Assembly: GCA_035537775.1 (NCBI GenBank)
Contig: DATLLQ010000230.1
Span: forward strand, 1,845-65,844
Length of the DNA: 64,000 nucleotides
Source of the DNA: Vicinamibacterales bacterium
Lineage (GTDB): Bacteria; Acidobacteriota; Vicinamibacteria; Vicinamibacterales; UBA2999
Reading direction: 5' to 3'
In this document: in pieces, positions 13,430 through 34,956 of the stretch
How the letters are laid out: each line of letters starts with the position of its first letter
Numbering within the stretch: the first letter of the stretch is position 1
The notes under the pieces: model-generated
The model's database searches: none
Told to the model about the DNA's origin: nothing
Seen by the model: only the letters and a program-made list of their open reading frames with translations
Program-made: the position numbers and the translations under genes

Positions 13430-13456
13430 CGAAGCGATGATAGTTCGTCCCCCGCC

Positions 13457-18541: not shown

Positions 18542-20419
18542 GTGCTCTCCCCAAAAAAATCGGTGGTGGGCGCGACAAACTCGACTATAATCCGCCCCCT
18601 TCCCGTGACTGCTAGCTCCGCCGGCGGTTTTCGAGGGGCCATCGCGCGCAACAGGCGGCGAAGCCTTTTGGCGTCGGGATCTGTCCTGTCTCTGCTTCTG
18701 ATGATCGGGCGGCTCCTGGCTGCCAGCCCTACGCTGACGGCACTGAAACCCTCAGTCGGGCATCCTCACGACGTGGTCTTCATCGACGGCACAGGCAGGG
18801 AAGGCGCCCAGATTGTGTGGGATGCGGGCACTCCAGGCAAAGAAAAGGTGATTCCAGGCGCCTACCTTGGCGCGTTCATGTTCTCGGTGCCGCCGGACGC
18901 CGCACCTGGGCCACACGTGGTGAAGCTGCAGAACAGCGACGGTCGCTCGAACTCAATGACCTTCACTGTCCCAGAAGAGACGGGGCCACTGGACGTCCCT
19001 CACCCGCCCGGAGGGGAAAACGAATTTCCGCCGCCCCGTATTGATGCCGTCACGGTTATCAGCGCGACGTTCGTTTCGTCTGGTGTCAACGTTCTACTGT
19101 ACGTGCAGGGTGCCAATATCGACGTGGGAGCGACGGTCTCGCTGAAAGCCAGCCCGTCCGCTTCGCCCGTGCCGGTCGCAACGGTCAGTCACAGGGCATT
19201 GCGAAATGACTGGTTCGGGGTGTCCTCGACTGAATTCGAATATCCCATTTATCACTACAGCTCCACCGTCGTTTCGCTTGGCGTTCGACCAGCGGGGCAG
19301 AAACTCTGGTTCGTCGTCAAGAACCTCGATAACAAGCAGAGCAAAGAGTTCGAATACAAGCTGCCGAGCGATGCCAACACTATCGACAGCGACGGCGACG
19401 GGCTGCGCGATAAGTGGGAGACCCTCGGCTACGACGCCAACGACGACGGCGCTATGGACGTCGATCTTCCGGGGTTGGGTGCGAACCCGTATCGCCGCGA
19501 CCTGTTTCTGGAACTGGACATCATGGACAACCTTCAGTTCCCGCCGCATAGCGGCGACGGGGGCGCGCCGGATTCAACGGTTGTCGATGGCCTGAAAAGA
19601 ATGTTCGAGGCAGCGCCGATCCTCAACTACGGCGGCGCTCCGGGAATACGCCTCGTGGTCGATGCGACGGGCAAACCATGTCTGCCGAACCCGCCGAATC
19701 CGGACGTCTGTTCGTTCGCTAAAACAGAGTTTACGAACATCGGCACGTTGACCCCGGCTGCGGACGCGGCTGCGGTCGCAGCTGCGATCGCATCGGGGCA
19801 AGTGAGCTACTCGCTCCTGAAGGCCCACAACTTCAGGAATGACCTGCGCGGGAGTATCTATCACTATGCGATCTGGGGAGTCCGACGGCCCCCGGACTAC
19901 GATTCCGGGATCAGTGATGTTGCTGATGATTTCCTGATCAGCATCGATCAGCGCCCAGACTTCATTCAATCGCGTCGTTCCCAGATCGAAAGATTGGCAC
20001 ACGAATTCGGCCATAACCTGGGCCAGCTTCATGGAGGCTCCGACAACATCGCATACAAGCCGAACTATCTGAGCGTCATGTCGTACAACTGGGACCTGAG
20101 GACCGGCTGGGAGAATGAGCGTCGCGAACAACGCGCCACCTGCTTGCCGTTCTACTACGCCGAAAAGGACGCCACGGAGATGGGCGGTGTCCCCCCAACG
20201 AGCGTCAACACAATCGTGGACTACTCGGAGGGAATGGGGAAGCCGCTGGTTAAGCCGCCGGCATCGACGGCGCCGTCCGTCACGAAGATGTGCGGGTCGA
20301 CGGTCGATTGGTCGGTCGAATTGTCGAAGGTCCCGCCGGCAACGATAGTCAAGGACTTTGCGAACTGGCCCGCTCTGGTCTTTACCGGTCCCACCACCGA
20401 GGGGAGGGTTAAGCCGTGA
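18542..20419 (+). CDS. Secreted metzincin-type zinc metalloprotease with an N-terminal IPT/TIG-like domain and a Ca-binding DxDxDG motif
   Basis: HEFGHNLGQLH fits HExxHxxGxxH, and a Met-turn-like LSVMSY follows. DSDGDGLRDKWE motif. TIG-like SPTLTALKPSVGHPHDVVFIDG...VVKLQNSDGRSNSMTFTV. The GTG start is uncertain. Confidence 0.7.
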   Translation: MLSPKKSVVGATNSTIIRPLPVTASSAGGFRGAIARNRRRSLLASGSVLSLLLMIGRLLAASPTLTALKPSVGHPHDVVFIDGTGREGAQIVWDAGTPGKEKVIPGAYLGAFMFSVPPDAAPGPHVVKLQNSDGRSNSMTFTVPEETGPLDVPHPPGGENEFPPPRIDAVTVISATFVSSGVNVLLYVQGANIDVGATVSLKASPSASPVPVATVSHRALRNDWFGVSSTEFEYPIYHYSSTVVSLGVRPAGQKLWFVVKNLDNKQSKEFEYKLPSDANTIDSDGDGLRDKWETLGYDANDDGAMDVDLPGLGANPYRRDLFLELDIMDNLQFPPHSGDGGAPDSTVVDGLKRMFEAAPILNYGGAPGIRLVVDATGKPCLPNPPNPDVCSFAKTEFTNIGTLTPAADAAAVAAAIASGQVSYSLLKAHNFRNDLRGSIYHYAIWGVRRPPDYDSGISDVADDFLISIDQRPDFIQSRRSQIERLAHEFGHNLGQLHGGSDNIAYKPNYLSVMSYNWDLRTGWENERREQRATCLPFYYAEKDATEMGGVPPTSVNTIVDYSEGMGKPLVKPPASTAPSVTKMCGSTVDWSVELSKVPPATIVKDFANWPALVFTGPTTEGRVKP

Positions 20420-21247: not shown

Positions 21248-21790
21248 ATGAAGAAGTTGCTTCTCGTAAGCCTGCTGGCAGCGGCGACGACGGTATTGGC
21301 GTGTAACAGCTCGGAGAAAGCTGCACCCGCTGCGGCGCCGGCCGATGGTATTGCGCCCGCTGCGGCGGACGGTCAACCGAAACAGACTCGAATCCATTTC
21401 ACGAACAACTATCACAAGGGGACCAATCCCGGGCAGTACGATACCAACTGCATCGGCATCGTCACGACTGAACAGATCAAGGCTGACAAGAAGCAGAAGA
21501 TCATGTGGAAGATCAGCTTGATCAACGGCGAATCCAGAGATGACGAATGTACTGGGCTCACTGACCTGTCGTCGGTGAACCTGCGCTTCGAGAACGATGT
21601 CATGGGCCCGGCGGCGGTGAAGAAGTTGACTGCCAACAGCGGCGGGGTCATCCAGGGTGAGATATCCGACGACGAAGCGCATTACAACAACACCCGCATC
21701 CAGAAGTACCAGGTCTACATTGGGGACAAGAAGGCGGGCCCGGATCCGATCATCGTCGTGCCCTGCAGCAGCTGCGGAGAAGAAGAATAG
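21248..21790 (+). CDS. Small lipoprotein, unknown function, in low-GC coding sequence
   Basis: MKKLLLVSLLAAATTVLAC lipobox with AAGGAGG 6-12 nt upstream of the ATG. C-terminus VVPCSSCGEEE. 21481..21540 is 29/60 G+C by hand count. Confidence 0.65.
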   Translation: MKKLLLVSLLAAATTVLACNSSEKAAPAAAPADGIAPAAADGQPKQTRIHFTNNYHKGTNPGQYDTNCIGIVTTEQIKADKKQKIMWKISLINGESRDDECTGLTDLSSVNLRFENDVMGPAAVKKLTANSGGVIQGEISDDEAHYNNTRIQKYQVYIGDKKAGPDPIIVVPCSSCGEEE

Positions 21791-21811: not shown

Positions 21812-24427
21812 TCAGCGCTTCTTCGCCGCCGCGTCGAGTTCTTGAAACGCCCGAAGCGATCGCAGCGATGCGAGGTCGTCGTCATCGCGTGCCTGGTGAA
21901 ACGGGTATCCTCGCTCGATCGCTTCCGCTAATCTTTTGACGGCGTCATCGCGCTGGCCAATGAGTGCCAGCGCGGCCGCCCGCCGATACAACACGTCCAG
22001 GTCGGACGGGTTTGTCGTGAAGGCACGTCGCGTGTACAGCTCGGCCTCAATCTTCGATCCAACTTTCGCGTAATACAGACCAAGCAGCGACTCCATCGCC
22101 GCATCGTTCTGGTTGACTTTCAGCGCATTCTCCCCGGCGTCGATTGCCTTGTTGTACGCAACCGTTGCATCCCTCTTCCGGCCGCCTTTGCGGTAGGCAT
22201 CACCTAAATTGCCCCAGTTCAACGCAATCTTCGGTTCGAGATTCGCCGCCCGTTCATAATCGCGAATCGCTTCGTCGTACCGTTGCTCGGAATATGCGAT
22301 GTAGCCCAGGTTCGCGAAAGAGACAGCGTTCGCGCGGACCTCATTGGACTTCTTGAAACTCTGGCTCGCGCGAACGCGATCGCCATCCTCGTCTCGCGCA
22401 AGGTACGTCGCGCCAAGCTGTTGCAGAGGCATCTCGTCATCGGGCTTGAGCTTCGCGAGCAGTGTGAACTCCCGAATAGCGTCCGCATACTGGCGGTTTC
22501 CGAGAAAGAACAGCCCGAGCACTTCGTGATTGAGCCAATAGTTCGGCTGCACCTCTAATGCTTTTTGAAACGCCTCGAGCGCTTCGCGCGGCTGCCCGGC
22601 TTTAGCCAGCAACTCGCCGAGCAGACGGTGTGCCCTGGGATTGTCCGGCTGATCCGCGAGCACATTTTTCACTTCAAGGACTGCCAGCGGCTGACGGCCG
22701 GTGGATCGAAGTACGGACGCCAGCGACAGCCGGACGTCGGGCTGGACGGCATCGAGACGCAGTGCTTGATCAATCGCGGTGACCGCGTCGTCCATGAGCT
22801 TTGGGTTGTTGGTCCTGACCGAGTGGCGCCGATACGTCTCGCCAAGCGCGGCAAACGCCTCCGCGAACTTGGAATCACGTGCTGTCGCCTGCTTGAACAG
22901 GCGAACGGCGGCGTCGAAGTCCAGGTCAGGTCGATCCAGCAGCTCCAGCCCCCGCAGATACGCGTCCATCGCCACTGGATCGTCTGAAGGCGAACGTGCC
23001 AGTTGCATGCGCTCTGGTACGCTGACCTTGACACGCAACGTCGCGAGCAGCGATTCGGCAAGCCGGTTCTGTATCGAGAACAGCTCGGCCTCACGATCCT
23101 CTGCCTTGTCGCTCCAGACCTGCCTCTCGTCGGGGGTCACCAGTCGGGCGATCACGAGCAGCCTGTCGCCCGACTGCTGGATGCTGCCTTGAACCAGCAT
23201 CGTTGCCCCGAGCTCGCGCGCGACTGCCTCGAGCCCGAGCGTAGCGCCAGCCTCCACCACGCTCTCCGATTGCGAGACGACGGTAATCGACGGCAAGCGG
23301 CCCAGCGAATTCTCCAACAACCTCGCGACGCCAAGGCCAAGGTGTGACTTCGACTCGTCGCCGGTCAGATTCGCGAAGGTCAGCACCGCAATGACCGGCC
23401 GCTCGGTGGTGTCCGTGACGTTAAGCCGGCTGAGAAGCGGGGCGGCGGCCAGACCACCAATCGCGAGGGCGCCTGCAATCAGCCATGCGGCGTAGCCATG
23501 CAGGCGCCGTTTTCGAACGGCAGTGCCGAGCGTCTGACTTCTGAGTGGCGGGCGGCCTCTGTCCGACGAGACTTCCGTCAGCACACGCCGCAGCTCCGTC
23601 TCCAGAGCACCCGCCGTCTGAAAGCGATTGGCCGGGTTGCGCGCCATGCAGCGGGCGATCGTTTCGGAGATTTCAGGTGCGATTGCGGGGTCCACGTCGC
23701 GCACGGTTCTGATCGGCGTGGTCAGGGCCGCGTTCCGAATCAGCTCCCCGATGTCGCCGTCATGCGGCCGGTGTCCAGTCACCAGCTCGAACAGCATCAC
23801 TCCCAGGGTGTAGATGTCCGTGCGCTCATCGACCCGATCGCCCAGGAGCTGCTCGGGCGACATGTAGGGAGGCGTCCCCATGATCTGCCCGGTCGTCGTA
23901 TGTACCCGCGGTTCGCCGTCCTCGCCCGTCGGCAGCGAGGTCTCGTGCTGGAGAAACTTCGCGAGACCGAAATCCAGCACCTTGACGTGACCGTCACCGG
24001 TCACCATGACGTTGGCCGGCTTCAGATCGCGATGGACGACTCGTGCGCGATGCGCGGCGCCGAGCGCGTTGGCGATCTCGATGCCGATCTCGAGCGCGCG
24101 CGCCAGCGACGGGCGTCCTTTCCTGACATGCGCCGCAAGCGTCTCGCCGCGCACGTATTCCATGACGATGAACGGTTGATCGCCGATCCGGCCGATGTCG
24201 TGAACCGCCAGGATCCGTGGATGGTTCAGTGCGGCGGTGGTCTGTGCCTCCTGCTCAAATCGCCGGAGCCGATCGGGATCGGCGGCGAAGGCGGAGGGGA
24301 GCAGCTTGACCGCGACGGTGCGGCCGAGCAGCGGATCGCGGGCCAGGTACACCTCGCCCATGCCGCCGGCCCCCAGCGGTGACTGGATCTCGTAACGACC
24401 GACTGAAGTGCCGGCGACTAGCGCCAC
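21812..24427 (-). CDS. Hanks-type Ser/Thr protein kinase with a TM helix and a C-terminal TPR array
   Basis: GAGGMGEVY...VAVK, HRDLKPANV, DFGLAK and GTPPYMSPE. A TM helix follows (AAWLIAGALAIGGLAAAPLL), then multiple TPR-like repeats. Confidence 0.9.
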   Translation of the reverse strand: MALVAGTSVGRYEIQSPLGAGGMGEVYLARDPLLGRTVAVKLLPSAFAADPDRLRRFEQEAQTTAALNHPRILAVHDIGRIGDQPFIVMEYVRGETLAAHVRKGRPSLARALEIGIEIANALGAAHRARVVHRDLKPANVMVTGDGHVKVLDFGLAKFLQHETSLPTGEDGEPRVHTTTGQIMGTPPYMSPEQLLGDRVDERTDIYTLGVMLFELVTGHRPHDGDIGELIRNAALTTPIRTVRDVDPAIAPEISETIARCMARNPANRFQTAGALETELRRVLTEVSSDRGRPPLRSQTLGTAVRKRRLHGYAAWLIAGALAIGGLAAAPLLSRLNVTDTTERPVIAVLTFANLTGDESKSHLGLGVARLLENSLGRLPSITVVSQSESVVEAGATLGLEAVARELGATMLVQGSIQQSGDRLLVIARLVTPDERQVWSDKAEDREAELFSIQNRLAESLLATLRVKVSVPERMQLARSPSDDPVAMDAYLRGLELLDRPDLDFDAAVRLFKQATARDSKFAEAFAALGETYRRHSVRTNNPKLMDDAVTAIDQALRLDAVQPDVRLSLASVLRSTGRQPLAVLEVKNVLADQPDNPRAHRLLGELLAKAGQPREALEAFQKALEVQPNYWLNHEVLGLFFLGNRQYADAIREFTLLAKLKPDDEMPLQQLGATYLARDEDGDRVRASQSFKKSNEVRANAVSFANLGYIAYSEQRYDEAIRDYERAANLEPKIALNWGNLGDAYRKGGRKRDATVAYNKAIDAGENALKVNQNDAAMESLLGLYYAKVGSKIEAELYTRRAFTTNPSDLDVLYRRAAALALIGQRDDAVKRLAEAIERGYPFHQARDDDDLASLRSLRAFQELDAAAKKR

Positions 24428-24519
24428 ATGCTGACCAATACGGGACGGACCGGGGAAAGCGTCCCCCGGCAGGCGCCAGTATAGTCCTCAGGTTTTGGGA
24501 GGGAAGAGGGGAGCCGGAT

Positions 24520-24606
24520 TCAGGCGCTGCGGTCGATCAGCCAGCCAAGGACGACGACCAGTACCACGGTGGCGGCGACGGTTGCGGTGACCAGCAGGGC
24601 GACCAT
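24520..24606 (-). CDS. Candidate 28-aa single-TM peptide
   Basis: MVALLVTATVAATVVLVVVLGWLIDRSA. Its ATG overlaps the stop of the upstream membrane gene by 1 nt (TGATG). It could be a chance ORF in high-GC DNA. Confidence 0.25.
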   Translation of the reverse strand: MVALLVTATVAATVVLVVVLGWLIDRSA

Positions 24607-25553
24607 CAGAACGACTTGCCCAGGAACGGAAGCATCCGGCCGGCGTAGAGCACGCCGAACCACGAGACGAGCGACAGGACCGCCATCGCCTTGTCGCCAG
24701 CGCCAGGCTGGAACCCGGCCTCGACGCGGCCCTCGCGGGGCCAAGGCTTCCCGAAGACAGTCAGATACAGGAAGTTGGCACCGGCAATCATCAGGAACGC
24801 GATCTTCCAGTAGAACGGGTTGCTCGCGGTGTACTGCCCCGGCTGGCCGACGAAGAAGAACATCCCGGTGATGAGATTGGCGCCGAAGCCAAGCATGCCC
24901 CACGGCAGCAGCCGGTGCACGTCGTCAAACGGAATCCGCCGCATCGCGCCGAGTATCCGCAGGTTCACGGCCAGCAGCACGCCGAACGAAAGGGAGAGTC
25001 CCAGGAAGTGAATGGCCTCTGCGGCTGGCCAGGCCCACGAGCTGTAAACCGCCACCTGGCCGATCGCGTACGCCATGAATCGCTTCGGGTCGCCTTCCGG
25101 CGCAGGCGCACCCGAGGCCAGGATTTCGGGATGGCGGATCTCGCCACCGATGTTCGCCGCACGCCCCATCACCACAAGCGACAGAAGCAGGAGAATCGTC
25201 GCGGCCGGGACAACACCCGCCGCCGCACGGCCGTGGCGCCGCCACTGCCACAACGCCAGCCATGCAATGAACCCGGCAAACTCCATCACGCTGAAGCCGA
25301 TGATCGCCGCATCCTGATGGACTCTGATCGCTTCGACGGACACTCCGGCAGTTTCGCGCAGTTCCTGATGAGCGGCCACGCCGCTGACGTAGACGGGCAG
25401 CGTCAGGAGCGCAATCAGGAAGAGCACCTCCAGCCCGACGTGCTTCAGATGCTCGTTGCGGCGGGTGTAGCCCAGGATCAGGAGGCCCAGCGCCACCACC
25501 GACCCGATGGTGGGCACATGGTTCATCACGAGATGGAGATGGGCGAAGTTCAC
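24606..25553 (-). CDS. Polytopic membrane protein (about 8 TM), unknown function
   Basis: Hydrophobic helices throughout. His-containing motifs HLHLVMNHVPTIG and GGEIRHPEI. The C-terminal half resembles the product of 25560..26024. GTG start. Confidence 0.7.
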   Translation of the reverse strand: MNFAHLHLVMNHVPTIGSVVALGLLILGYTRRNEHLKHVGLEVLFLIALLTLPVYVSGVAAHQELRETAGVSVEAIRVHQDAAIIGFSVMEFAGFIAWLALWQWRRHGRAAAGVVPAATILLLLSLVVMGRAANIGGEIRHPEILASGAPAPEGDPKRFMAYAIGQVAVYSSWAWPAAEAIHFLGLSLSFGVLLAVNLRILGAMRRIPFDDVHRLLPWGMLGFGANLITGMFFFVGQPGQYTASNPFYWKIAFLMIAGANFLYLTVFGKPWPREGRVEAGFQPGAGDKAMAVLSLVSWFGVLYAGRMLPFLGKSF

Positions 25554-25559
25554 GGCTGC

Positions 25560-26024
25560 TTAGAGAACGACATAGGCGAGCAAGCGGCCCGCGGTTACGG
25601 CGCCTGTCCAGGCCAGCACCGACACGATCGCCAGCGTTCTGGCGTTACTGGGAACCTCACCCTCGGCACCGCTCAGCACGTACTTGCGAAGCGGCATCAA
25701 CGTGGCGGCGCCGGCGACGACCAGCGACATCTTGATAAAAAACGGTACGGCGGTCCCCATCGTCGTCGCGGCCTTGATGAAGAGCAGCACGCCGGTCACG
25801 ACATTAACAACGAGGCCGATCGCAATAGCCGGAAAAACCCAGCGGTAGGACGACAAAGGAATCTGCCGGTTGACGCCAAGCAGACGCAGGTCGAGCATCC
25901 AACTGGCGCCGACGAGGACGGCCATCCCTGTGGTGTGAAGGGTGAGGACGGTGGGGAGCGCCCATATCGAAGGCGACTCCCCCAACCAGACTGCTAACGA
26001 CGACGACTCAAGCCAGGAGAGCAC
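25560..26024 (-). CDS. 4-TM membrane protein, unknown function
   Basis: LTLHTTGMAVLVGASWMLDLRLLGVNRQIPL... aligns by eye with HFLGLSLSFGVLLAVNLRILGAMRRIPF... of the next gene. Its GTG start directly abuts the upstream TGA. Confidence 0.7.
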   Translation of the reverse strand: MLSWLESSSLAVWLGESPSIWALPTVLTLHTTGMAVLVGASWMLDLRLLGVNRQIPLSSYRWVFPAIAIGLVVNVVTGVLLFIKAATTMGTAVPFFIKMSLVVAGAATLMPLRKYVLSGAEGEVPSNARTLAIVSVLAWTGAVTAGRLLAYVVL

Positions 26025-26930
26025 TCAGTGCCGATACTGTGAGCTGGCTTCTGTCTGTTCGTGGTCCGTGCAGGCTCCACGCTCTCCGACGATCGTGTTG
26101 TTACCCGCAAGTCGCATGGTGATGGTCGGCATGACCCACGGTTTCAGAAGCACCTCCGGGTCCTCGACAGTGACGTCGTAGGTAATCTGGTTCCCGACCC
26201 GGGTGAACTTCTCGATGACGCGCATCTTGTCGGAGTGGAACCACCCGCCGCGGGCGAGCCAGGTCTCGTCGGTAAAGCCGATGGAGTCGAGGACGAGCGT
26301 GTCGCCCTCCCACCTGCCGACCGTGTAGCCCATGAGGCTGTACTGGTTGGGCCGGTTTGGATCATGCGGCTTCCCGTTCAGCGCCACCATGCGGAACTCG
26401 GCATATCCGCCGGCACCGTCGCGGCCGCCCGGGTAGATCATCGTGATGTCGGTGTCGGTGTGGAAGATTCTCGACGGCGGCCCCTGTCGCGGAAGACCGA
26501 GCGCCAGGCAAGACCCAACCGGGTCGTACTTGTTCGTCCACTGGTCGAGCTCGATGACCTTGTTCCAGTGCTCGGGCTTGTACATCGGCTGATTCAGGCC
26601 GAGCCGCGAAGTCGACATGAACACCCAGTCTTCGCTCTGGTTCGTCCATTCCATGCACTGCTTGTTCTGGAACGGCGTGCACCGCCGGAACATGTCGCCA
26701 ACCGTCCAACCGGAACCCTGGACGCCGGAGCCGGTGATGAGGCCGCCAGCCTGCCAGGAGCCTGTCAGGTCGGGTTTCCCACTCGCCAGCTTGGGCGTCG
26801 GTGCGTTCGGATCGGGCGCTGGCGCCCCGCCGCCGCGGCCGCCCTGCCCACCCTGCGCGCCCAGGGGCGCCACGAGGAGACCGAGCGCTACGAGCAGGGT
26901 CGATGCCTTTAGCAAGTTCCTCACAGTCAT
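26025..26930 (-). CDS. Secreted protein of an uncharacterised family (GKPDLxGxW ... GRW[DE]GDTLV motif)
   Basis: The ATG at 26930 lies 2 nt after the upstream stop, with GAGG upstream. Signal peptide MTVRNLLKASTLLVALGLLVAPLGA, a GQGGRGGG tract, GKPDLTGSW and VGRWEGDTLVLDSIGF. The listed longer ORF overlaps the upstream gene. Confidence 0.7.
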   Translation of the reverse strand: MTVRNLLKASTLLVALGLLVAPLGAQGGQGGRGGGAPAPDPNAPTPKLASGKPDLTGSWQAGGLITGSGVQGSGWTVGDMFRRCTPFQNKQCMEWTNQSEDWVFMSTSRLGLNQPMYKPEHWNKVIELDQWTNKYDPVGSCLALGLPRQGPPSRIFHTDTDITMIYPGGRDGAGGYAEFRMVALNGKPHDPNRPNQYSLMGYTVGRWEGDTLVLDSIGFTDETWLARGGWFHSDKMRVIEKFTRVGNQITYDVTVEDPEVLLKPWVMPTITMRLAGNNTIVGERGACTDHEQTEASSQYRH

Positions 26931-26932
26931 CC

Positions 26933-28000
26933 TCACTTTCCAGCTTTCTGCACGCTTTCCGGAACCGGCACGATGACGTATATCTGGCCGATCTCGGTAA
27001 CCTTTGAGGTCACGTTGCGCACGGCCGCGCCGTTCTTGCGTTCGACGGTGGTGCCTGGCATCAATGCCTCGATCTTGAACAGCGGATTGTTGAAGTCCGC
27101 CCACTTGCTGTAGATGAATTCGTGGGTGTCGTTCCCGTTCTTCACCACCACGCTCTCTGGCAGGTAGTTGACGAGCGTCGCCGTCGCCGTTGCACCCGGA
27201 ACGTCAGGAACCGGGAACGTGAGCACGGCCTTCTCCACCGTCTTCTCCGTCACCCACGTCAGCGTCGTCGTCCCCTTCACTCCGGCAGCGGCCTGCCGAT
27301 CGAGCAGTGTGGCCGGGTTCTGGCCGAAGGACTGCAGAGGGTGCATCCCTGCTGCGCCAGCAATGGCAGCCTTGATCGAACCATGCGGGCCGGCCCACAG
27401 ACGAATCCGGCGGTCCGTGAGCGCCGCTCGGTTTGGAGTCGACTTGCCCTTGCCAGGAACGAGTTCCGCGCCCGGGATGTCGTCGTCCCAGGCGTAATCC
27501 CCGCTCATGTTCTCGACGATCGAGTAGGTCTGCTTGTTGGCACGCGTGCACCCGATGTCAATCCGGTATCCCGGGACCAGGTAGTTGGCCTGCCAGTGAT
27601 ACTTCGTGATCGTGCAGGGCTGGCCGTTCACCTGCACGGTGCCGCCCGCCCCGTAGTAGTCGAGCGTCTTGACCAGCTCGGACTCTGCGCCGCTGCGCAG
27701 CATTCCCATGTGCCAGGCCCAGTTGTAGAGAACGTCCTTCAGTTCCTTGGACCCTGCCGGAGGCGTATACGCACCGCCCCGCCCGCGGCCAGCAGCAGCG
27801 CCACCACCCGGACCACCAGGACCGCCGCGGCCCTGAGCACCACCCGGCCCGCCGGGACCCTGTCCGCCCCTGCCCTGCGCGCCGGCGGCCGGGCCCTGTC
27901 CGCCAGCAGCCGGAGCCTGGCCCAAAGCGGTCACACCGCTCAGGGCGACCACACACGCGAGCACACTTATCGCTAGAGTTCGTCGTTCAAACATGGCCAA
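26933..28000 (-). CDS. Secreted protein with a Gly/Arg-rich N-terminal tract, unknown function
   Basis: Signal peptide MAMFERRTLAISVLACVVALSGVTALG, then about 50 aa of GQGP/GRGG low complexity, then a globular region with no motif I recognise. Confidence 0.65.
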   Translation of the reverse strand: MAMFERRTLAISVLACVVALSGVTALGQAPAAGGQGPAAGAQGRGGQGPGGPGGAQGRGGPGGPGGGAAAGRGRGGAYTPPAGSKELKDVLYNWAWHMGMLRSGAESELVKTLDYYGAGGTVQVNGQPCTITKYHWQANYLVPGYRIDIGCTRANKQTYSIVENMSGDYAWDDDIPGAELVPGKGKSTPNRAALTDRRIRLWAGPHGSIKAAIAGAAGMHPLQSFGQNPATLLDRQAAAGVKGTTTLTWVTEKTVEKAVLTFPVPDVPGATATATLVNYLPESVVVKNGNDTHEFIYSKWADFNNPLFKIEALMPGTTVERKNGAAVRNVTSKVTEIGQIYVIVPVPESVQKAGK

Positions 28001-28015
28001 CTCCGAGGTATCCGA

Positions 28016-28426
28016 TTAGTCCGTGCCGTCGCCAAAGAAGAGAAGAATGTTCTTGTCGCCGAGCTGGAGGTTTCTGATGAATCCAGCCGGGTTGCCGTTG
28101 CGCGCTGGAAGGACCGTTACCTTCAGGAGCTCGCCGGGCTTCATCGAGGTCTTGTTGATGCCCTCGCGGGTCAGCGTCTGGACGGAGGCAGTGGTGAGAA
28201 TCCAGTCAACCACCTTGCCCTTGATCTTCTTGTCCGGCACGGAGAGCTCGATGTTCGCGTGCGGATTCACAAAGTTCAACTTCTTGAGCCGTCCCTCGAG
28301 GACGATCTCCTTATTCAGGTCGTACACGCCCGCTACGGCATGATGGGCCTGCAGGACGGCGCCGGTGTACATGATGCCGGCCGCGAGGAATCCACACAGT
28401 ACGAGTCGAGCGGTTCGTGAGCTCAT
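28016..28426 (-). CDS. Small secreted protein (resembles what I recall as DUF6152; unverified)
   Basis: The ATG at 28426 has GGAG 8 nt upstream. The signal peptide ends LQA/HH. Motif HHAVAGVYDLNKEIVLEGRLKKLNFVNPH is shared with the N-domain of 13457..14590. Confidence 0.7.
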   Translation of the reverse strand: MSSRTARLVLCGFLAAGIMYTGAVLQAHHAVAGVYDLNKEIVLEGRLKKLNFVNPHANIELSVPDKKIKGKVVDWILTTASVQTLTREGINKTSMKPGELLKVTVLPARNGNPAGFIRNLQLGDKNILLFFGDGTD

Positions 28427-28508
28427 GGTTTTACTCCAATAGTGATAGCCGCCGGATAGTAGCAAGAGCCACCCCGGGCCGCAAGGCTACCACTCCCCGA
28501 AATTATTA

Positions 28509-28525
28509 GGAATTTGTTAAATTCC
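28509..28525. promoter_or_regulatory. AT-rich perfect palindrome in the intra-operon gap
   Basis: GGAATTT-GTT-AAATTCC (7-3-7), embedded in an AT-rich patch (gaaattattagg...). It lies about 83 nt upstream of the 28426 start in otherwise GC-rich DNA. Confidence 0.35.
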
Positions 28526-28536
28526 AATCCCGCCGA

Positions 28537-29922
28537 CTACTCCGCGGGCTCGATCTTGAGAATTACCGCGTCGGTCTCGTCGGTCGCCACGTAAAGAAGG
28601 CCGTCCCTGCCCTGCTTCACGTCCCGGATCCGTCGCCGCAGGTCACCCAGCAAGGTCTCCCGGCGCAGCTCCTCGTAGTTCCTGTTGATCAGGATTCGAT
28701 CCAGGCGCCCGGTGCCTGGAATCTCCCCGTAGCGCATGCCGCTGACGAAGACATCGCCCTTCCACTTCGGCAGCTTGTCACCCGTATAGAAGGTGATGCT
28801 CGACACGGCAATCGCGGGCATCCAGTAGATGACCGGGTCGCGAATCCCTTCCTTTGCGAACGGCCCCTGCCAGGGACCGCCGTAGGTGCGTCCGAGGCTG
28901 ACGAGCGGCCAACCGTAGTTGGCACCGGGCACGAGGACATTGACCTCGTCTCCGCCGTTCGGCCCGTTCTCGATCTGCCAGATCGCGCCGGTGATCGGGT
29001 GTTTCGCCATTCGCAGGAAGGTGCGATGGCCATGCGTGAAGATCTCGGGTCTCGCGTCGGCGCGGCCAACGAACGGGTTGTCCGGCGGAACCTTGCCCTC
29101 GTCGGTCAGGCGCAGGATTTTGCCGCCGAGCGTCTTGAGCGACTGCGTATCGCCTCCGCCGGACGCGACGTACAGCATGCCGTCGCCACCGAACACAATC
29201 GGACCGCCGCTGCCGCCCTCACCCACGAAGATGTCCTTCAGGTCAGTGAAGCTTTTGCCGTTCCACACCGCGCGCGCCACAGCCAGCGTCGTCTGCTGTC
29301 CACCGCCACGCCCGCCTCGTCCTCCGCCCGCGGCACCACGACCTGCACCACCAGCTCCGGCCGCACCCGCGGGAGCTTGAGCACCAGCGGCACCCGCCGG
29401 TGCGGGAGCAGCCGCCGCAGGGGCGGGTGCGGCAGCGGCGGCGCCGGCGGCAGGCGGCGCACCTCCCGCTCGACCGGCCGGGGCGCCAAGTGGCTTGGTG
29501 TAGCTGATGTACACGTAGCGATTCGTTTCGAAGTTGGGGTGCAGCGCCAGGTCCGTGCCCGACAGTCCTTGCGCCACGGCCACAGGCCCGCCGGTCACGG
29601 GCTCGACCTTCCCGTTCCGCACCGCCTTGATCGCGCCACCGCGTTCGGCAACGAGCATCGTGTCGTCAGACACCCACGCCATGCTCCAGGGGTTGTTGAA
29701 GCCGCGGGCGTAGACCGACACGCGAATGGTCTGTCCCTCCCCCGTCTCAAAGCGGACCGGAGAATCTGGCAGCGGCGGCGACTTGAGGCCCTGCGGTGCC
29801 CTGGGCGTATTGCCGTTCATCGGCACGTCCTGCTGGGCGAATAGAGCAGGCCCAAGGCCGAAGGCCAAAGGCCCAAGAAGGCCCAAAGAAGCAATGGCGA
29901 GACGACGGAAGGATCTGGTCAT
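28537..29922 (-). CDS. PQQ-dependent (soluble glucose/sorbosone-type) sugar dehydrogenase-like beta-propeller, secreted
   Basis: Signal peptide MTRSFRRLAIASLGLLGPLAFGLGPALFA. Family-like blocks FNNPWSMAWVSDDTMLVAERGG, LALHPNFETNRYVYISYT, ILRLTDEGKVPPDNPF, IFTHGHR and NGPNGGDEVNVLVPGANYGWP. It carries an Ala/Gly/Pro/Arg insertion of about 67 aa. Confidence 0.8.
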   Translation of the reverse strand: MTRSFRRLAIASLGLLGPLAFGLGPALFAQQDVPMNGNTPRAPQGLKSPPLPDSPVRFETGEGQTIRVSVYARGFNNPWSMAWVSDDTMLVAERGGAIKAVRNGKVEPVTGGPVAVAQGLSGTDLALHPNFETNRYVYISYTKPLGAPAGRAGGAPPAAGAAAAAPAPAAAAPAPAGAAGAQAPAGAAGAGGAGRGAAGGGRGGRGGGQQTTLAVARAVWNGKSFTDLKDIFVGEGGSGGPIVFGGDGMLYVASGGGDTQSLKTLGGKILRLTDEGKVPPDNPFVGRADARPEIFTHGHRTFLRMAKHPITGAIWQIENGPNGGDEVNVLVPGANYGWPLVSLGRTYGGPWQGPFAKEGIRDPVIYWMPAIAVSSITFYTGDKLPKWKGDVFVSGMRYGEIPGTGRLDRILINRNYEELRRETLLGDLRRRIRDVKQGRDGLLYVATDETDAVILKIEPAE

Positions 29923-30013
29923 GTCGATCTCCAGGATGAATGGACCCGCGGATTGTATCGCCAAGGGCATCGAGCCGCTCGGCCCTGGTCCGCCGACGAT
30001 ACAATTGGCGGCC

Positions 30014-31057
30014 GTGAAGAGAACACATCCGATCGCGATGCTTGGCGCCCTGCTGCTCGGCTGCGTCGTTGCCGGTGCGCAGGCGCCTCCTCAAGGCCAG
30101 GCGCAACCGCCGGCTGGACGCGGGCGCGGCGCGCCGGCTCCTGCGACGCGGATCGTCAGCTTCGAGGCGCAGCCGGCGACGATCAAGCCGGGCGAGTCAG
30201 TGCTTCTGGTCTGGCACATCGAGAACCCACCGTCCGCGACAGGATTCAACGGGTTTGGGACACTCGAACCCGGTGTCGGGCGTGTCGCGCCGCGTGGCTC
30301 GAGGCGCGTGACGCCCGCCGCGACGACGACCTACACGTTGAGCGCTGGCGCCGTGACGAAGACAGTGACGGTGACCGTCCCGGGCACGACACCCATCACG
30401 GCGGCTTCCGGCGCATCGGCGGGCGCGAGCTCAGCGATCCGGCGGACGCCCGACGGAAAGCCGGACTTCTCGGGCATCTATGGCTGGGGAAATCTGTTCG
30501 GCGCTCGAGGCGGCGGTGCGGCGCCGCCCGCGCTCAAGCCCGGAGCGGAGAAGTATCGAGTGAGCCGCGGTCCGCAAGACACCGGAGCGACGTCCGACTG
30601 CCTGCCGCTGATTCCGCCAAACTCATTCGGTGTGCCCTATGAGTTCCAGTTCATCCAGAACAAGGACTATCTCCTCATCCTGCACGAGTATCCCGGAACG
30701 TTCCGCATCGTTCCGCTCGATGGCGAACCGCATCAGGCCGATCCCGATCCGTCCTGGCTTGGCGATTCAGTCGGCCGATGGGATGGCGACACGCTGGTGA
30801 TCGACACGATCGGCTACAACGACAAGACCGAGATCAACGGGTATCGTCACAGCGAGGCATTGCACACGGTGGAGCGGCTCACGCGCGTCGCCGATGGTGT
30901 CGAGTACGAGCTCACCATCGACGACCCGAATGTCTTTGCCGCTCCCTGGAAGGTGAATCGCAGTTTCCGGTTCACCGACGCGCCGCAGAAGCGGATCTTC
31001 GAGTTCGTCTGCGAGAACAACCGCGATTACAAGGTGCTCTTCGGCGACAGGAAGTAA
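30014..31057 (+). CDS. Secreted paralogue of 26025..26930 with an extra N-terminal Ig-like domain
   Basis: GTG 30014 gives MKRTHPIAMLGALLLGCVVAGAQA. Ig-like segment IVSFEAQPATIKPGESVLLVWHIE...TYTLSAGAVTKTVTVTV. Then GKPDFSGIY, VGRWDGDTLVIDTIGY and HTVERLTR. Confidence 0.7.
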   Translation: MKRTHPIAMLGALLLGCVVAGAQAPPQGQAQPPAGRGRGAPAPATRIVSFEAQPATIKPGESVLLVWHIENPPSATGFNGFGTLEPGVGRVAPRGSRRVTPAATTTYTLSAGAVTKTVTVTVPGTTPITAASGASAGASSAIRRTPDGKPDFSGIYGWGNLFGARGGGAAPPALKPGAEKYRVSRGPQDTGATSDCLPLIPPNSFGVPYEFQFIQNKDYLLILHEYPGTFRIVPLDGEPHQADPDPSWLGDSVGRWDGDTLVIDTIGYNDKTEINGYRHSEALHTVERLTRVADGVEYELTIDDPNVFAAPWKVNRSFRFTDAPQKRIFEFVCENNRDYKVLFGDRK

Positions 31058-31059
31058 TC

Positions 31060-32088
31060 TCAACGCTCCAGACGATCGCGCAAGGAGACCAGCGCACCGG
31101 CCGCGGCCTCTTTCATCCGGCCTTCGATCGCCGCACGCTTCAAACCGTCGAACGTGCCGCCGAGCGTATCGAGCTCCGACCGTGTGACGTAGACGAGGTA
31201 CGACGACCCATCGCCTGAAGCGAAGAGCATCCACAGCGTGAGCTCTCCATTCAGGTAGCGCGAGGCATAAACCGTCGAGGACACGGTCAGGACAGCCGGA
31301 ACCTGTGGACCCGGCTCGGGTTGAAACGTCGTCAGGTGGGTGAGTACGACGACCGGCTTGTTGTTCACGATCACCTTGGACCAGTGGAGCGACGTCGCCT
31401 TGCCAGTCGTGTCTGTGAGCGGAAAGCGCTTCAGATACGCCGCCACGGCGGGGAGGTGCACGCGCAAATACGGCATCTGTTCGAGGATGTCCGAAAAGAC
31501 CGCGGCGGGTTGCACCGGGTTGGAGCGGTCGTGGTACTCGGGCAGCGCGGCGAGACCTCCCGATCGGTATTGTTTCAGCCTGGAAAGAATCACGTGTCGA
31601 AACGCATCCTGCACCGCCGCCGGTGACTCGGGACGCCGCGTGATGGCGCGCTGCAGATCGGAGATCTCGCCGTCGGCGAGGTTGAGCGCACACTTGCCGG
31701 GCCGGCAGACGCGAACCCGGTCGATGTCGCCTTGATCGAGCGTCAGCGGTGCGAGGTCAGCGGCTGTCGGAGGCTCGCTGAATCGCTCTGACACCAGCTC
31801 GTCACGCTTCACATAGCCGAGTGCGCTGGCGCCTGCCACCACCTCGTCGGCAGAGATGTCGACCGCGCACAGGGCGATGATGCTGATCTGTCTATTCGAA
31901 GCCGGAAGACCCTGTGTCACGACCCCACGGCGCGCTAGCGTGTCGCGATCCTGCCTCTCCACAGCGAACCAGGGCTCGAGGAAAGCCAACTCGTTCGTGT
32001 GGACGGTTGTCGCCCCGCGCGTTTGCCACGGTTCGAGCAGGCTCAACAGCGCCACACTTACAATCGTCCATCTCCAGGAGGGGGGCAT
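31060..32088 (-). CDS. Secreted hypothetical protein
   Basis: N-terminal hydrophobic segment WTIVSVALLSLLEPW and ordinary amino-acid composition, unlike the Arg/Pro-rich alternative frames. It starts 90 bp downstream of the molybdoenzyme large subunit on the same strand. Confidence 0.55.
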   Translation of the reverse strand: MPPSWRWTIVSVALLSLLEPWQTRGATTVHTNELAFLEPWFAVERQDRDTLARRGVVTQGLPASNRQISIIALCAVDISADEVVAGASALGYVKRDELVSERFSEPPTAADLAPLTLDQGDIDRVRVCRPGKCALNLADGEISDLQRAITRRPESPAAVQDAFRHVILSRLKQYRSGGLAALPEYHDRSNPVQPAAVFSDILEQMPYLRVHLPAVAAYLKRFPLTDTTGKATSLHWSKVIVNNKPVVVLTHLTTFQPEPGPQVPAVLTVSSTVYASRYLNGELTLWMLFASGDGSSYLVYVTRSELDTLGGTFDGLKRAAIEGRMKEAAAGALVSLRDRLER

Positions 32089-32178: not shown

Positions 32179-34449
32179 TCACACGAGCTTTTGCTTCGAG
32201 AAGGGCATCTCGCGGAGGCGTTTCCCTGTCGCCGCGTAGATCGCGTTGGCCAGCGCCGCGATCACCGGCGGCACACCAGGCTCACCGACGCCGGTCGGCA
32301 GATCGCCGCTCTCCGCAAAGTGCACGTTCACCTGGATCGGCGCGTCGTTCATGCGCGCCACTCGGAAGCCGTCGAAGTTCTTCTGATCGATGCGGCCGTT
32401 CGTGGCCGTGATCTCGCCGAACATCGCCAGGCTCACGCCCATCACCGCCGCGCCTTCGAGCTGTGAACGCACGCGGTCGGGATTGATGACCACGCCAGGG
32501 TCCGCGACCATGTCGATGCGCGGGATCTTCAGCCGTCCCTGCCGATCGACTTCGACCTCGACGACCGACGCCACGTAGGAATTGAAACTGCGATGCGCGG
32601 CAATGCCCATGCCCCGGCCGTTGCCTGACGGACGCTTCGCCCAGTTCGACTTCTCTCCCGCGACCTCGAGGACCCGGCGCAGCCGCCGGCTGTCCACGGG
32701 GTACTTGTCGATCGGCGCGCCGTAATTCGTGTAGTCCACGCCCTGCGCCTTCAGATCGATCGCCTTGCCAGGGCCGAGCAGGTCGAGCAGGAACTCGAGC
32801 GGGTCGCGCTTCGCGGCGTGCGCCAGTTCGTCGGCGAAGCTGTGAAGCGCGAACGCGTGGAAGTTGTTGGAGACGGCGCGGAACCAGCCGATGCGCACGT
32901 GCGCACCGGCGCCGGCGTTCTCGGCCCGGATGTTGGGCACGTCGTAGGGACTGTCGTCGAGCCCCATGTTGAGCTCGAAGTTCATCGGCTCCGGCGCGCC
33001 GAACGTGGACGCAATCGGCGGGAACACCGAGCGCTTCAACCACGCCGTCGGACGTCCCTTCGCATCGACGGTCGCCTTGTGGTACACCGCCGCGTTCGTG
33101 TGGTAAAAGTCGTGACGAATATCGTCCTCACGCGTCCACACGACCTTCACCGGCTTCCCGAGTTTCTTCGCGAGGACCGCCGCCTCTGCCGCGTAGTCCG
33201 GCTTGCTCTTCCGCCCGAACCCGCCGCCGAGCAGCGTGACGTGACACGTGACGTCGCGCTTGTCGATGCCGAGTGCCGCGGCGACGGTCTCCTGGGCCGC
33301 CTGCGGATTCTGCGTCGGGCACCACACTTCGGCCTTGCCGTTTCTGAACTCCGCCACTGCCGCGGGCGGCTCCATCGACGCGTGCGCCGCCATCGGGGTG
33401 TAGTAGACCGCCTCGAGCGTCTTGCCGCCCTTGGCGAACTCGGCGTCTACGTTGCCGAGATTGCGGGCAACCTTTGCCGACTGCTTCACCCTCTCGATCA
33501 TCGCCGTCCTGAACGGAGCGCTCGTGAGCGTCGTGTTGGGGCCGTCGTTCCATTCGATCTTCAGCTGGCGGCGCCCCTGCAGCACCGACCAGGTGTTGCG
33601 GCCAATCACGGCAACGCCGCCGAGCGGCTGGAACAGCAGCGGCGGTTTCGGCGGGTCGAGGGTCTCGATTGACGTGACGCCCTTCACCGCGAGCGACGCC
33701 TTGCTGTCGATGCTCCGGATGGTGCCACCGACCACTGGTGGATGCTCAATCGACGCAAACACCATCCCGTCACGATGCACGTCGAGCCCGAACTGCGCCG
33801 TGCCCGTCACGATCGGCGTGAGGTCGTAGATTTCCGTTTCCTTGCCGACGAACTTCCAGTCGGCCTTCGGCTTGAACCGGAGAGTCTCCCTTGCCGGCAC
33901 TTGCAGCTTCGCCGCGGCGGGAACCAGCGCGCCATAGCCGACCCGCCGGCCGCTCCGCGCATGCACCACCTCGTGATTCGCCGTCGTCAGCTCACCGACA
34001 GGCACGTTCAGCTGCGCCGCGGCAGCGGTGATGAGCATCGTGCGGGCCGACGCGCCCGCCACGCGGAACGCATCGTAGAAGTCGCGGATCGACCGCGACC
34101 CGTCGGTGTTCTGATCGCCGTAGCGGGTGTCGCCGACGCCCTGCTCGATACGGCAGCGGCTCCAGTCGGCGTCCAGCTCGTCGGCGGCCACGAGCGGCAG
34201 CGACGTGCGGATGCCCGTGCCCATCTCCGATCGATGCGTGACGAGATACACGGTGCCGTCAGGCTCGATGCCGAGATAGACGCTGGGATGTAGAGCCGCG
34301 GTGTCGGCCTTCGTGTTCAGGATGGCGGCCGCCGGCGCCTGCGCGAACAGTTCCGCGGGCACGAGGCGTGCGGCGACGACGAACGCGCCGGTTGAGAAGA
34401 GGCCGCCGAGGAACTGCCGGCGATCGAGCGAGATGTTGTCGACACGCAT
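32179..34449 (-). CDS. Molybdopterin-binding oxidoreductase large subunit (IorB / aldehyde oxidase-xanthine dehydrogenase family), Tat-exported
   Basis: The ATG at 34449 overlaps the small-subunit stop (TGATG). Tat motif LDRRQFLGGLFSTGAFVVAA. It is about 756 aa of the a/b-hammerhead plus MoCo-binding type (GGGFGRKS, MGTGIRTSLP). Confidence 0.88.
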   Translation of the reverse strand: MRVDNISLDRRQFLGGLFSTGAFVVAARLVPAELFAQAPAAAILNTKADTAALHPSVYLGIEPDGTVYLVTHRSEMGTGIRTSLPLVAADELDADWSRCRIEQGVGDTRYGDQNTDGSRSIRDFYDAFRVAGASARTMLITAAAAQLNVPVGELTTANHEVVHARSGRRVGYGALVPAAAKLQVPARETLRFKPKADWKFVGKETEIYDLTPIVTGTAQFGLDVHRDGMVFASIEHPPVVGGTIRSIDSKASLAVKGVTSIETLDPPKPPLLFQPLGGVAVIGRNTWSVLQGRRQLKIEWNDGPNTTLTSAPFRTAMIERVKQSAKVARNLGNVDAEFAKGGKTLEAVYYTPMAAHASMEPPAAVAEFRNGKAEVWCPTQNPQAAQETVAAALGIDKRDVTCHVTLLGGGFGRKSKPDYAAEAAVLAKKLGKPVKVVWTREDDIRHDFYHTNAAVYHKATVDAKGRPTAWLKRSVFPPIASTFGAPEPMNFELNMGLDDSPYDVPNIRAENAGAGAHVRIGWFRAVSNNFHAFALHSFADELAHAAKRDPLEFLLDLLGPGKAIDLKAQGVDYTNYGAPIDKYPVDSRRLRRVLEVAGEKSNWAKRPSGNGRGMGIAAHRSFNSYVASVVEVEVDRQGRLKIPRIDMVADPGVVINPDRVRSQLEGAAVMGVSLAMFGEITATNGRIDQKNFDGFRVARMNDAPIQVNVHFAESGDLPTGVGEPGVPPVIAALANAIYAATGKRLREMPFSKQKLV

Positions 34450-34904
34450 CACGCACGCTCCTTCGCCGCGGTCTTGATCGCGGCACGAATGCGTTGATAG
34501 GTGCCGCACCGGCAGACGTTGCCCGACATGGCGGAATCGATCTGCACATCCGTCGGATTGGGCGTCGTCTTCAGCAGCGCTGCGGCCTGCATGATCTGGC
34601 CGGACTGGCAGTAGCCGCACTGCGGGACGTCGTGCTGGATCCAGGCGCGCTGCACCGGGTGGAGCTTCCCGCCCTCGCCCAGCGCGTCGATCGTGAGCAC
34701 GGTCTTCGATTCGAGGGTGCCCATTTTCGTCTGGCAGGAGCGCACCGCCTGTCCGTTCACGTGCACCGTGCACGCGCCGCACAGGCCGGCCCCGCAGCCG
34801 AAGCGCGTGCCGGTCAGCCGCAGGTCGTCGCGGAGGTACCAGAGCAGCGGCATATCCGGATCGTCTTCGTAGTTCTGTGGTTTTCCGTTGACTGTCAGTC
34901 GCAT
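34449..34904 (-). CDS. [2Fe-2S]-binding small subunit (IorA-like)
   Basis: Plant-type and second cluster motifs [12 protein letters not shown] and [10 protein letters not shown]...NVCRCGTY. Confidence 0.9.
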
Positions 34905-34956
34905 GATGGGGATCCTCTCGTCGGCAACGCATTATATTCCCCGGCAAAGGAGCGAG

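Follow-up and report, generated by a model that had tools for sequence, protein, structure and literature searches.

In a 64,000-nucleotide stretch of a Vicinamibacterales genome (assembly GCA_035537775.1, contig DATLLQ010000230.1, positions 1,845 to 65,844; hereafter the window), three genes, labelled A, B and C, were found to share a C-terminal domain, here called CALY, that belongs to a large exported family and has the DUF6152 protein as its recurrent genomic partner. CALY is not autonomous: it accompanies DUF6152 in the genome and is sometimes covalently joined to it. The DUF6152-CALY pair is, we infer, probably an envelope module. Relative to the libraries and literature searched, three things are new: the CALY family, the fact that it pairs with DUF6152, and the operon of five genes that includes gene A. 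A fold of this class was known already, as was the notion of a periplasmic metal protein with an N-terminal His and membrane partners. The outcome is a well-founded gap in annotation that lends itself to testing, not a proven new mechanism. The coordinates of all features are collected in Table 1.

A sequence-only reading of the window had proposed three paralogues of a secreted family, and this was borne out. The three open reading frames (ORFs) were present at the proposed positions and strands, and by pairwise BLASTP their C-terminal parts proved homologous, a domain of about 205-255 residues being common to all three, with E values of 7e-23 for A and B (44% identity over 89 residues), 2e-12 for A and C and 1e-16 for B and C. 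The homology is far beyond chance. In multiple alignments A, B and C were only about 26-34% identical to one another. Searches with tblastn for each protein, and of the domain profile against the 718 ORFs of the window, gave a copy number of exactly three. A candidate fourth copy at 51272..51397 (tblastn E 0.12) was rejected; it lies antisense to a plus-strand gene and was missed by the profile. The GC content at third codon positions (GC3) was 0.77-0.85 for A, B and C, and the GC content of the window was 64.7% overall.

The collinear motifs described by the sequence-only reading are real. GKP[DN][LF]xGxW was located at residues 49-59 of A, 147-156 of B and 146-155 of C, GRW[ED]GDTLVxD at A204-219, B253-268 and C285-300, and HxxE[RK][FL]T at A237-244, B284-291 and C316-322. 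A and B also keep an intact fourth motif, DP...PW, whereas the C of the window has a degenerate form of it (DDSDYFADKY), where the invariant Asp alone is retained; at this position the C orthologues mostly have EDPxYFxDKY. By inspection, all three products begin with Sec-type signal peptides, with cleavage at ...PLGA↓QGG in A, ...AGAQA↓PPQ in B and ...ERVSA↓HHG in C. Of the different N-terminal elaborations that had been described, the RGG tract of A (residues 26-44) was confirmed and the small HH domain of C was identified as DUF6152, but the Ig-like label given to B was not confirmed. Pfam and PDB sequence searches with residues ~44-128 of B, the extra beta-rich domain of this solitary CALY copy, gave no significant match.

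The shared domain of A, B and C gave no Pfam-A or NCBIfam match at E values up to 1, and no Pfam or NCBIfam model covered it in 105 diverse relatives, in which the accessory domains were DUF6152 (twice) and CarboxypepD_reg (once). All PDB sequences were searched with A by phmmer and with the profile of an alignment of relatives (A2), and none matched. The relatives are named 'hypothetical protein', and RefSeq does the same for those of cultured Novosphingobium and Croceibacterium. Full-text literature searches returned nothing for DUF6152, DUF6644, PF19649 or PF20349, and irrelevant papers alone for DUF2214. The description of the family as uncharacterised therefore stands, and neither A, B and C nor the 105 relatives mapped to an already characterised family.

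Word-indexed searches returned 1937 relatives of A, 3970 of B and 4496 of C, some of the last being named 'DUF6152 family protein'. The best 120 of each formed separate orthologue groups (identity 64-92% for A, 61-99% for B and 83-99% for C), and the named members among these belong to the Vicinamibacterales (Acidobacteriota). The orthologue groups span hundreds of Vicinamibacterales metagenome clusters. An exhaustive profile search of 1.84 billion cluster representatives (50% identity) gave 13,446 matches at E <= 1e-3, of which 7,225 also passed E <= 1e-10. With a single peptide pattern, at least 589 confirmed stretches were found in GTDB species genomes; the best 80 of these included Acidobacteriota (Vicinamibacterales, Bryobacterales, Terriglobia), Gammaproteobacteria (including Ca. 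Rariloculaceae), Caulobacterales, Rhodospirillaceae and Hyphomicrobiales. The family spans phyla, occurring in Acidobacteriota and in Alpha- and Gammaproteobacteria. It is also strongly multi-copy. The 83 loci of about 20 kb that were used for the cassette counts held 184 CALY domains, about 14 copies lie within 33 kb of one Rariloculaceae chromosome, and tandem CALY-CALY proteins exist (P0366, P0374). The lineage-specific expansion that had been suggested from three copies in one window was not upheld, given the low identity of the paralogues, their own orthologue groups and the multi-phylum set of clusters. Because each gene has a separate orthologue group, the duplications are considered old, and on sequence grounds the three genes represent ancient paralogues that have become sub-functionalised within the multi-phylum family, not a recent burst.

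Structure prediction, one of the checks proposed earlier along with phylogenetic distribution, co-occurring genes and conserved Cys pairs, was performed with AlphaFold2. The model of B residues 142-347, built from a 130-sequence alignment, reached a mean predicted local distance difference test score (pLDDT) of 78 and a predicted template-modelling (TM) score of 0.80. It suggests an up-and-down beta-barrel consisting of a first strand with a G-x-W motif, three short helices, eight more consecutive strands (nine in total) and a C-terminal helix. The model of A had a pLDDT of 61.7 overall and 85-92 in the core, which resembles the B model; its insertion was modelled poorly, with values below 50 for residues 64-112. 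This A-type insertion holds a second conserved Cys pair, C84 and C92. The best Foldseek matches of both models in the PDB were FABP, CRABP, P2 and SAHS barrels, with weak E values of 3e-3 to 6e-3, a probability of ~1.0 and target-normalised TM scores of 0.45-0.57. The CALY core is accordingly predicted to be an FABP-like (calycin-type) up-and-down barrel with a helical lid after the first strand. CALY shares with these calycins the G-x-W in strand 1 and, according to the models, probably also an antiparallel barrel with a short helical lid and consecutive hairpins. The structural likeness is weak (E ~3e-3, TM score ~0.5), and the Pfam models of the lipocalin and FABP families matched neither A, B and C (E up to 1) nor the 105 relatives. 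Unlike FABP, which has ~135 residues, CALY is longer and exported, and it has a Cys pair, the invariant W-[ED]-G-D-T-L-V hairpin, E287, D304 and a genomic partner, DUF6152.

These matches bear on the chief rival to the metal-handling function considered below, namely that CALY is an FABP- or lipocalin-like periplasmic carrier of small organic compounds, most probably hydrophobic or aromatic ones. It would take over what TonB-dependent receptors bring in and pass it to catabolic enzymes of the periplasm or to proteins of the inner membrane. Each paralogue would have its own ligand specificity, and DUF6152 would be an accessory rather than the centre of the system. FABP and CRABP are the best structural matches and have the same topology, a G-x-W strand followed by a helical lid. 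The putatively internal polar set of CALY, of the Arg/Glu/Tyr type, resembles the residues with which FABPs bind carboxylates. The strict invariance of polar residues across 13,000 clusters favours a common chemistry over diversified pockets, however, and a carrier role leaves unexplained both the tight pairing and fusion with a His-His and NPH protein and the membrane partners related to CopD and DUF2214 that are described below. A carrier of this kind is considered an unlikely but serious candidate.

Conservation was determined using the residue numbering of gene B. In 80 diverse domains, the Gly of G-x-W (G154) was present in 100%, and the third position (156) was W in 85%, Y in 12.5% and F in 2.5%; the window genes have G57-S-W59 (A), G154-I-Y156 (B) and G153-D-W155 (C). 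The search for conserved Cys pairs was rewarded in the same 80 domains with C196 (99%) and C333 (95%). These two are placed so as to clamp the lid region onto the C-terminal tail, and since CALY is exported they presumably form a disulfide. Among the domains from the genome loci, R231 was conserved in 101/104, W256 in 103/104, D259 in 97/104, E287 in 104/104 and D304 in 103/104. The histidines were less conserved, with H279 in 86/104 (83%) and H240 in 69/104 (66%), and a universal two-His metal site in CALY was downgraded on this account. The order of strands in the model suggests that H240, H279, E287 and D304 share one end of the barrel. The most conserved segment is the hairpin W-[ED]-G-D-T-L-V-V/L/I-D. 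The letters DTLVV within it are those of the TonB box of BtuB; this resemblance was set aside as a probable coincidence, the segment being a high-confidence barrel strand. A TonB gene is present in the window at 9401..10321.

The genes that co-occur with CALY were then examined, and DUF6152 was found within 10 kb of CALY in 62 of the 83 loci. Of the 184 CALY domains, 51 have a separate DUF6152 gene directly upstream on their own strand; DUF6152 lies directly downstream of 20 and one gene away from 21, and in a further 13 it is fused N-terminally. In every fusion from the upstream test, DUF6152 is the N-terminal part, so that its His-His stays at the mature N-terminus, as would be expected if a free N-terminal His is required. 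That the HH domain is the standard genomic partner of CALY, with a free-standing copy in the window, was missed by the sequence-only reading. The N-terminus of C matched this small gene by tblastn against the window, and both copies exceed the Pfam PF19649 cut-off of 27 bits (Table 1). With such fusions and pairs recurring across loci, C is the fused form of a standard two-gene DUF6152-CALY cassette. In cultured Sphingomonadales, plasmid NZ_CP103870 of Novosphingobium humi has two DUF6644 genes followed by a hypothetical protein, CALY, DUF6152 and TetR, and plasmid NZ_CP011453 of Croceibacterium atlanticum has two DUF6152 genes, CALY, a TonB-dependent receptor directly downstream of it and MarR.

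DUF6152 is an exported domain of ~100 residues. For the free-standing gene the listed start is TTG, and the orthologues indicate that the true start is likely the ATG at 28426, 13 codons downstream. The mature N-terminus of its product would be His-His, following ...LQA. In 35/35 aligned DUF6152 sequences, Ala-His-His was present at the end of the signal peptide, the cleavage site being assigned by inspection. The tripeptide N-P-H, about 27 residues past the His-His, was invariant in the same 35 sequences, and an Asp and a Trp were nearly so. This pattern suggests an amino-terminal metal site. Sequence and profile searches of the PDB with DUF6152 gave nothing meaningful.

Gene A lies in an operon on the minus strand (24606..28465) with intergenic gaps of 0-15 bp and the transcription order DUF6152, unk355, A, DUF6644, TM315. 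The PQQ (pyrroloquinoline quinone)-dependent glucose/sorbosone dehydrogenase gene, GSDH, lies upstream and is possibly where the operon begins. The five genes recur beside orthologues in long metagenomic contigs (L001-L003), with the order sometimes changed. A promoter and terminator scan of 24300..31300 gave nothing above the expectation from shuffled sequence. The unk355 protein of the window had no Pfam, NCBIfam or PDB sequence match, and it had no detectable kinship to CALY (hhalign E 0.07, not significant). Elsewhere it is fused to A-type CALY (proteins P0368 and P0448; ORFs in loci L007-L012), and this Rosetta-stone link ties it to A. When the unk355 profile (alignment A7) was searched against the PDB, 2wto, 'ORF131 protein', was returned at a non-significant E of 0.094; we take this entry to be CzcE, a periplasmic copper-binding protein. 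The same profile matched the glucosidase 5z3k (E 2.9e-11) at profile positions 1-130 alone, which we suspect to come from the use of stop-to-stop ORFs, in which the sequence preceding the start codon was left untrimmed or a further domain is present at the N-terminus.

The last two operon genes encode membrane proteins. TM315, which had no Pfam match of its own, has a His-rich N-terminal half with four transmembrane helices (HLHLVMNHVP...; MNFAHLHLVMNHVP ... GGEIRHPE) and a DUF6644-like C-terminal half. The DUF6644/TM315 pair was found in 13 of the 83 loci, with phmmer cross-matches to DUF6644 ORFs. DUF6644-type members cross-matched DUF2214 (11/30, best 4e-8) and CopD (3/30, best 0.015), two families that presumably belong to one Pfam clan. 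The membrane partners carry a nearly invariant His.

Low-complexity tracts rich in Gly, Arg, Ala and Pro (QGGQGGRGGG, GRGRGAPAP, GGQGPGGPGGAQGRGG...) were observed in four adjoining exported proteins. They directly follow the signal peptide in A, B and unk355, and in GSDH form a ~70-residue insertion within the propeller. Their length differs among orthologues.

The function to which we give most weight, at a probability of roughly 0.4, is that DUF6152 is a metal protein with CALY as its periplasmic binding or hand-off partner, the two linking receptors, DUF6644 and metalloenzymes. DUF6152 would hold a metal, most likely Cu(II), at its amino-terminal His in the manner of CopC and YcnI. The CALY barrel would be its periplasmic binding or hand-off partner, receiving or delivering the metal or presenting a small ligand to DUF6152. 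The route would run between TonB-dependent-receptor-like proteins of the outer membrane, the CopD/DUF2214-like DUF6644 proteins of the inner membrane and periplasmic metalloenzymes. Consistent with this, the immediate neighbours of CALY are rich in metal-dependent periplasmic enzymes (metallo-beta-lactamase fold proteins, SGL lactonases, amidohydrolases, PQQ dehydrogenases and GSDH).

In CopC and YcnI, removal of the signal peptide leaves a His as the first residue, which binds Cu(II) with both its amino terminus and its side chain; their genes adjoin CopD (PMC12362106). Such CopC/YcnI (DUF1775)-CopD modules include ycnKJI of B. subtilis and yobA-yebZ-yebY of E. coli. DUF6152 resembles CopC and YcnI in its mature N-terminal His and in further conserved Asp/His and Trp residues (A↓HH, D, NPH, W), and the DUF6644 proteins beside it may be counterparts of the multi-pass CopD-type neighbours, the link to CopD being weak. 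In contrast, the CopC/YcnI-CopD systems have no CALY-like barrel partner and no large paralogue arrays. A second precedent is provided by ZinT and AdcA-C, in which a lipocalin-like barrel is an accessory Zn recruiter (PMC7858048). Like the gene C product, E. coli ZinT exposes a His-rich N-terminus (HGHHSHG) after its signal peptide. ZinT was absent from the top 50 Foldseek matches of CALY, and against the three-His zinc site of ZinT, CALY has two frequent His only, at 66% and 83% conservation.

Several results weigh against metal handling. No sequence relation to the known proteins was detectable in any of three comparisons: CALY as a relative of ZinT (PF09223) had no Pfam match and an hhalign E of 0.53 (alignment A2 against E. 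coli ZinT, probability 0.1%), DUF6152 as a homologue of CopC/YobA gave an hhalign E of 0.04 and a probability of about 1%, and DUF6644 against E. coli YebZ/CopD was not significant (hhalign probability 2.5%). The DUF6152 proteins of the window likewise had no CopC or DUF1775 Pfam match. With the two CALY histidines incompletely conserved, the barrel is unlikely to have a His-based metal site throughout the family. No adjacent DUF6152 was found for 79 of the 184 CALY domains (43%), and arrays as dense as the one in Rariloculaceae are unusual for metal trafficking. Among 122 immediate neighbours there were neither genes for copper or zinc homeostasis nor regulators that respond to metals. The regulators met near the cassettes were instead TetR, MarR and PadR, which usually sense organic molecules.

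A stronger form of the proposal is that DUF6152 and CALY make up a widespread two-component extracytoplasmic metal centre, with a His-His copper or zinc protein docked on a dedicated calycin barrel. The pair would serve either as periplasmic metallochaperones, each specific for certain Sec-exported metalloenzymes, or as a new family of copper-dependent oxidases. This appears improbable. If true, it would explain the dozens of paralogous cassettes amid hydrolases, PQQ dehydrogenases and TonB-dependent-receptor-like genes in Acidobacteriota, Sphingomonadales and marine Gammaproteobacteria. Alternatively, the pair could work outside the cytoplasm as a two-component enzyme, such as a copper oxidase with a histidine brace, of a new class analogous to lytic polysaccharide monooxygenases, with the substrate held in the barrel and the invariant Arg, Glu and Asp being catalytic. 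R231, E287 and D304 are near-universal, as catalytic residues would be, an N-terminal His is a hallmark of histidine-brace copper centres (PMC12362106), paralogue arrays lie amid catabolic enzymes, and both CALY-CALY and DUF6152-CALY fusions are known. Yet calycin barrels are mostly binders, searches of Pfam and NCBIfam with A, B, C and the 105 relatives found no similar enzyme family, and 43% of CALY copies lack an adjacent DUF6152. An enzymatic role is thus held to be distinctly unlikely.

Recurrent neighbours were identified by all-against-all clustering of the ORFs of the 83 loci. A TonB-dependent-receptor-like cluster occurred in 29/83 loci, a figure that may be partly background, as acidobacterial genomes are full of such genes. 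The assignment was based on a CarboxypepD_reg N-terminal domain in locus L003, on size, on the annotated Croceibacterium receptor and on our own reading; none of the acidobacterial receptor-like ORFs had an NCBIfam match at 1e-5, and in attempts at sub-typing (copper, PqqU, siderophore) nothing reached a curated cut-off. In the window, a TonB-dependent receptor gene adjoins none of A, B and C. In the Pfam census of the 122 immediate flanking genes, the metallo-beta-lactamase fold led with 10/122, followed by SGL lactonases (4), alpha/beta hydrolases, NHL propellers and amidohydrolases. The Rariloculaceae array is mixed with arylsulfotransferases, metallo-beta-lactamase/alkylsulfatase-like proteins, a molybdopterin subunit, amidohydrolases and an alpha/beta hydrolase. 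For the organic carrier, the receptor-like cluster, the annotated receptor of Croceibacterium, the TetR, MarR and PadR regulators, the large paralogue arrays and the hydrolases, lactonases, arylsulfotransferases, PQQ dehydrogenases and a tannase among the neighbours all count in favour. Ser/Thr kinases and sigma-54 response regulators were each found in 11 loci.

The CALY loci also invite comparison with TonB-dependent uptake loci, that is, SusC/SusD polysaccharide utilization loci and proteobacterial CUT loci, which are similar multi-copy cassettes of an exported binding protein and receptor-like genes with periplasmic hydrolases and regulators. Unlike these, the CALY loci have no SusD-like protein and no enrichment in glycoside hydrolases, and a receptor is nearby in about one third of them; the copies of the window differ further in having no adjoining receptor.

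PQQ enzymes form another recurrent group, with PQQ alcohol-dehydrogenase propellers in 11 of the 83 loci, di-haem cytochromes c in 9 and GSDH in 6. GSDH directly adjoins CALY in three otherwise unrelated loci (L035, L036, L059) and lies directly upstream of the operon in the window. Together with the nearly invariant His of the membrane partners, these counts could mean that the module assists PQQ-dependent dehydrogenases in the periplasm by transferring electrons or supplying the cofactor. CALY or DUF6152 would bind PQQ or accept electrons, and the His-containing membrane proteins would feed the quinone pool. About 60/83 loci have no nearby PQQ enzyme, however, neither CALY nor DUF6152 has a cytochrome or cupredoxin signature, and a single cofactor needs no such number of paralogues. 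This explanation is regarded as very improbable.

With more than 13,000 clusters that have no Pfam or NCBIfam model, solved structure or mention in the searchable literature, CALY represents a large gap in annotation, in a family that is abundant in soil Acidobacteriota and present in cultured Sphingomonadales. A testable system now emerges from hypothetical proteins, comprising the DUF6152 partner, the DUF6644 membrane partners and the DUF6152-CALY, unk355-CALY and CALY-CALY fusions, for which N. humi and C. atlanticum are genetically tractable hosts. Should periplasmic metal handling be true, it would bear on the loading of exported metalloenzymes in abundant soil bacteria; an enzymatic pair would instead add a new class of the histidine-brace type.

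Table 1. Positions of the CALY genes, their domains and associated features (window coordinates unless an accession is given)
Feature	Position	Strand	Residues	Remarks
Gene A	26025..26930	-	301 aa	Third gene of operon; ORF list, BLASTP to B and C
A, signal peptide	26856..26930	-	1-25	
A, G/R-rich linker (low-complexity tract)	26799..26855	-	26-44	
A, CALY barrel domain	26028..26798	-	45-301	
A-type-specific insertion	26595..26753	-	60-112	Between first strand and helical lid; alignments, low pLDDT
A, conserved hairpin	26286..26312	-	207-215	
Gene B	30014..31057	+	347 aa	GTG start, consistent with orthologue N-termini such as P0139
B, signal peptide	30014..30085	+	1-24	Followed by GRGRG/Pro linker
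B, low-complexity tract	30086..30142	+		
B, beta-rich N-terminal domain	30143..30397	+	~44-128	
B, CALY domain	30437..31054	+	142-347	AlphaFold2 model
B, conserved hairpin	30779..30805	+	256-264	
Gene C	13457..14590	-	377 aa	Signal peptide residues 1-25; fused DUF6152-CALY form
C, DUF6152 domain	about 14237..14515	-		Begins His26-His27; Pfam PF19649, 65.4 bits, E 5e-18
C, CALY domain	13460..14170	-	141-377	BLASTP to A and B
C, conserved hairpin	13703..13729	-	288-296	
Free-standing DUF6152 gene	28016..28465	-		Pfam PF19649, 76.1 bits, E 2.3e-21; two genes upstream of A
unk355, exported protein	26933..28000	-	355 aa	Between DUF6152 and A
unk355, low-complexity tract	about 27775..27910	-		
DUF6644 membrane protein	25560..26024	-	154 aa	Pfam PF20349, E 3.8e-7; starts right after A stop codon
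TM315 membrane protein	24606..25553	-	315 aa	Last operon gene; ORF list
GSDH	28537..29970	-		Pfam PF07995, E 3.1e-86; 71 bp upstream of DUF6152 gene
GSDH, low-complexity tract	about 29265..29460	-		
Molybdopterin-binding oxidoreductase subunit	32179..34947	-		Adjacent to next
Cytochrome c-containing protein	34888..36456	+		Adjacent to previous
CALY array, Ca. Rariloculaceae	OZ250159.1, 253-287 kb			Loci L066 / L020; free, DUF6152-fused and tandem copies

Around gene B, the molybdopterin-binding (MoCoBD) gene listed in Table 1 also adjoins the B orthologue in another locus (L002), and the neighbourhood of B is on this account syntenic across genomes. A CHASE3 histidine kinase gene lies just downstream of C. 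An ORF of 1005 residues at 12677..15694 (+) spans C antisense and is mostly a high-GC artefact, its C-terminal third (about 14696..15694) being a real gene for a GH3 glycosidase. The wider surroundings in the window, comprising this GH3 gene, GNAT, CotH, a tetratricopeptide-repeat kinase, the molybdopterin oxidoreductase with its cytochrome c subunit, HD-GYP/GAF, a subtilase and the CHASE3 kinase, are seemingly unrelated. Five well-coding ORFs (GC3 0.73-0.81) had no Pfam match, namely 18542..20419 (+), 3205..4245 (-), 16658..17122 (+), 21248..21790 (+) and 31060..32088 (-). The last of these, encoding 342 residues with a signal-peptide-like N-terminal segment, is positioned tail-to-tail with B.

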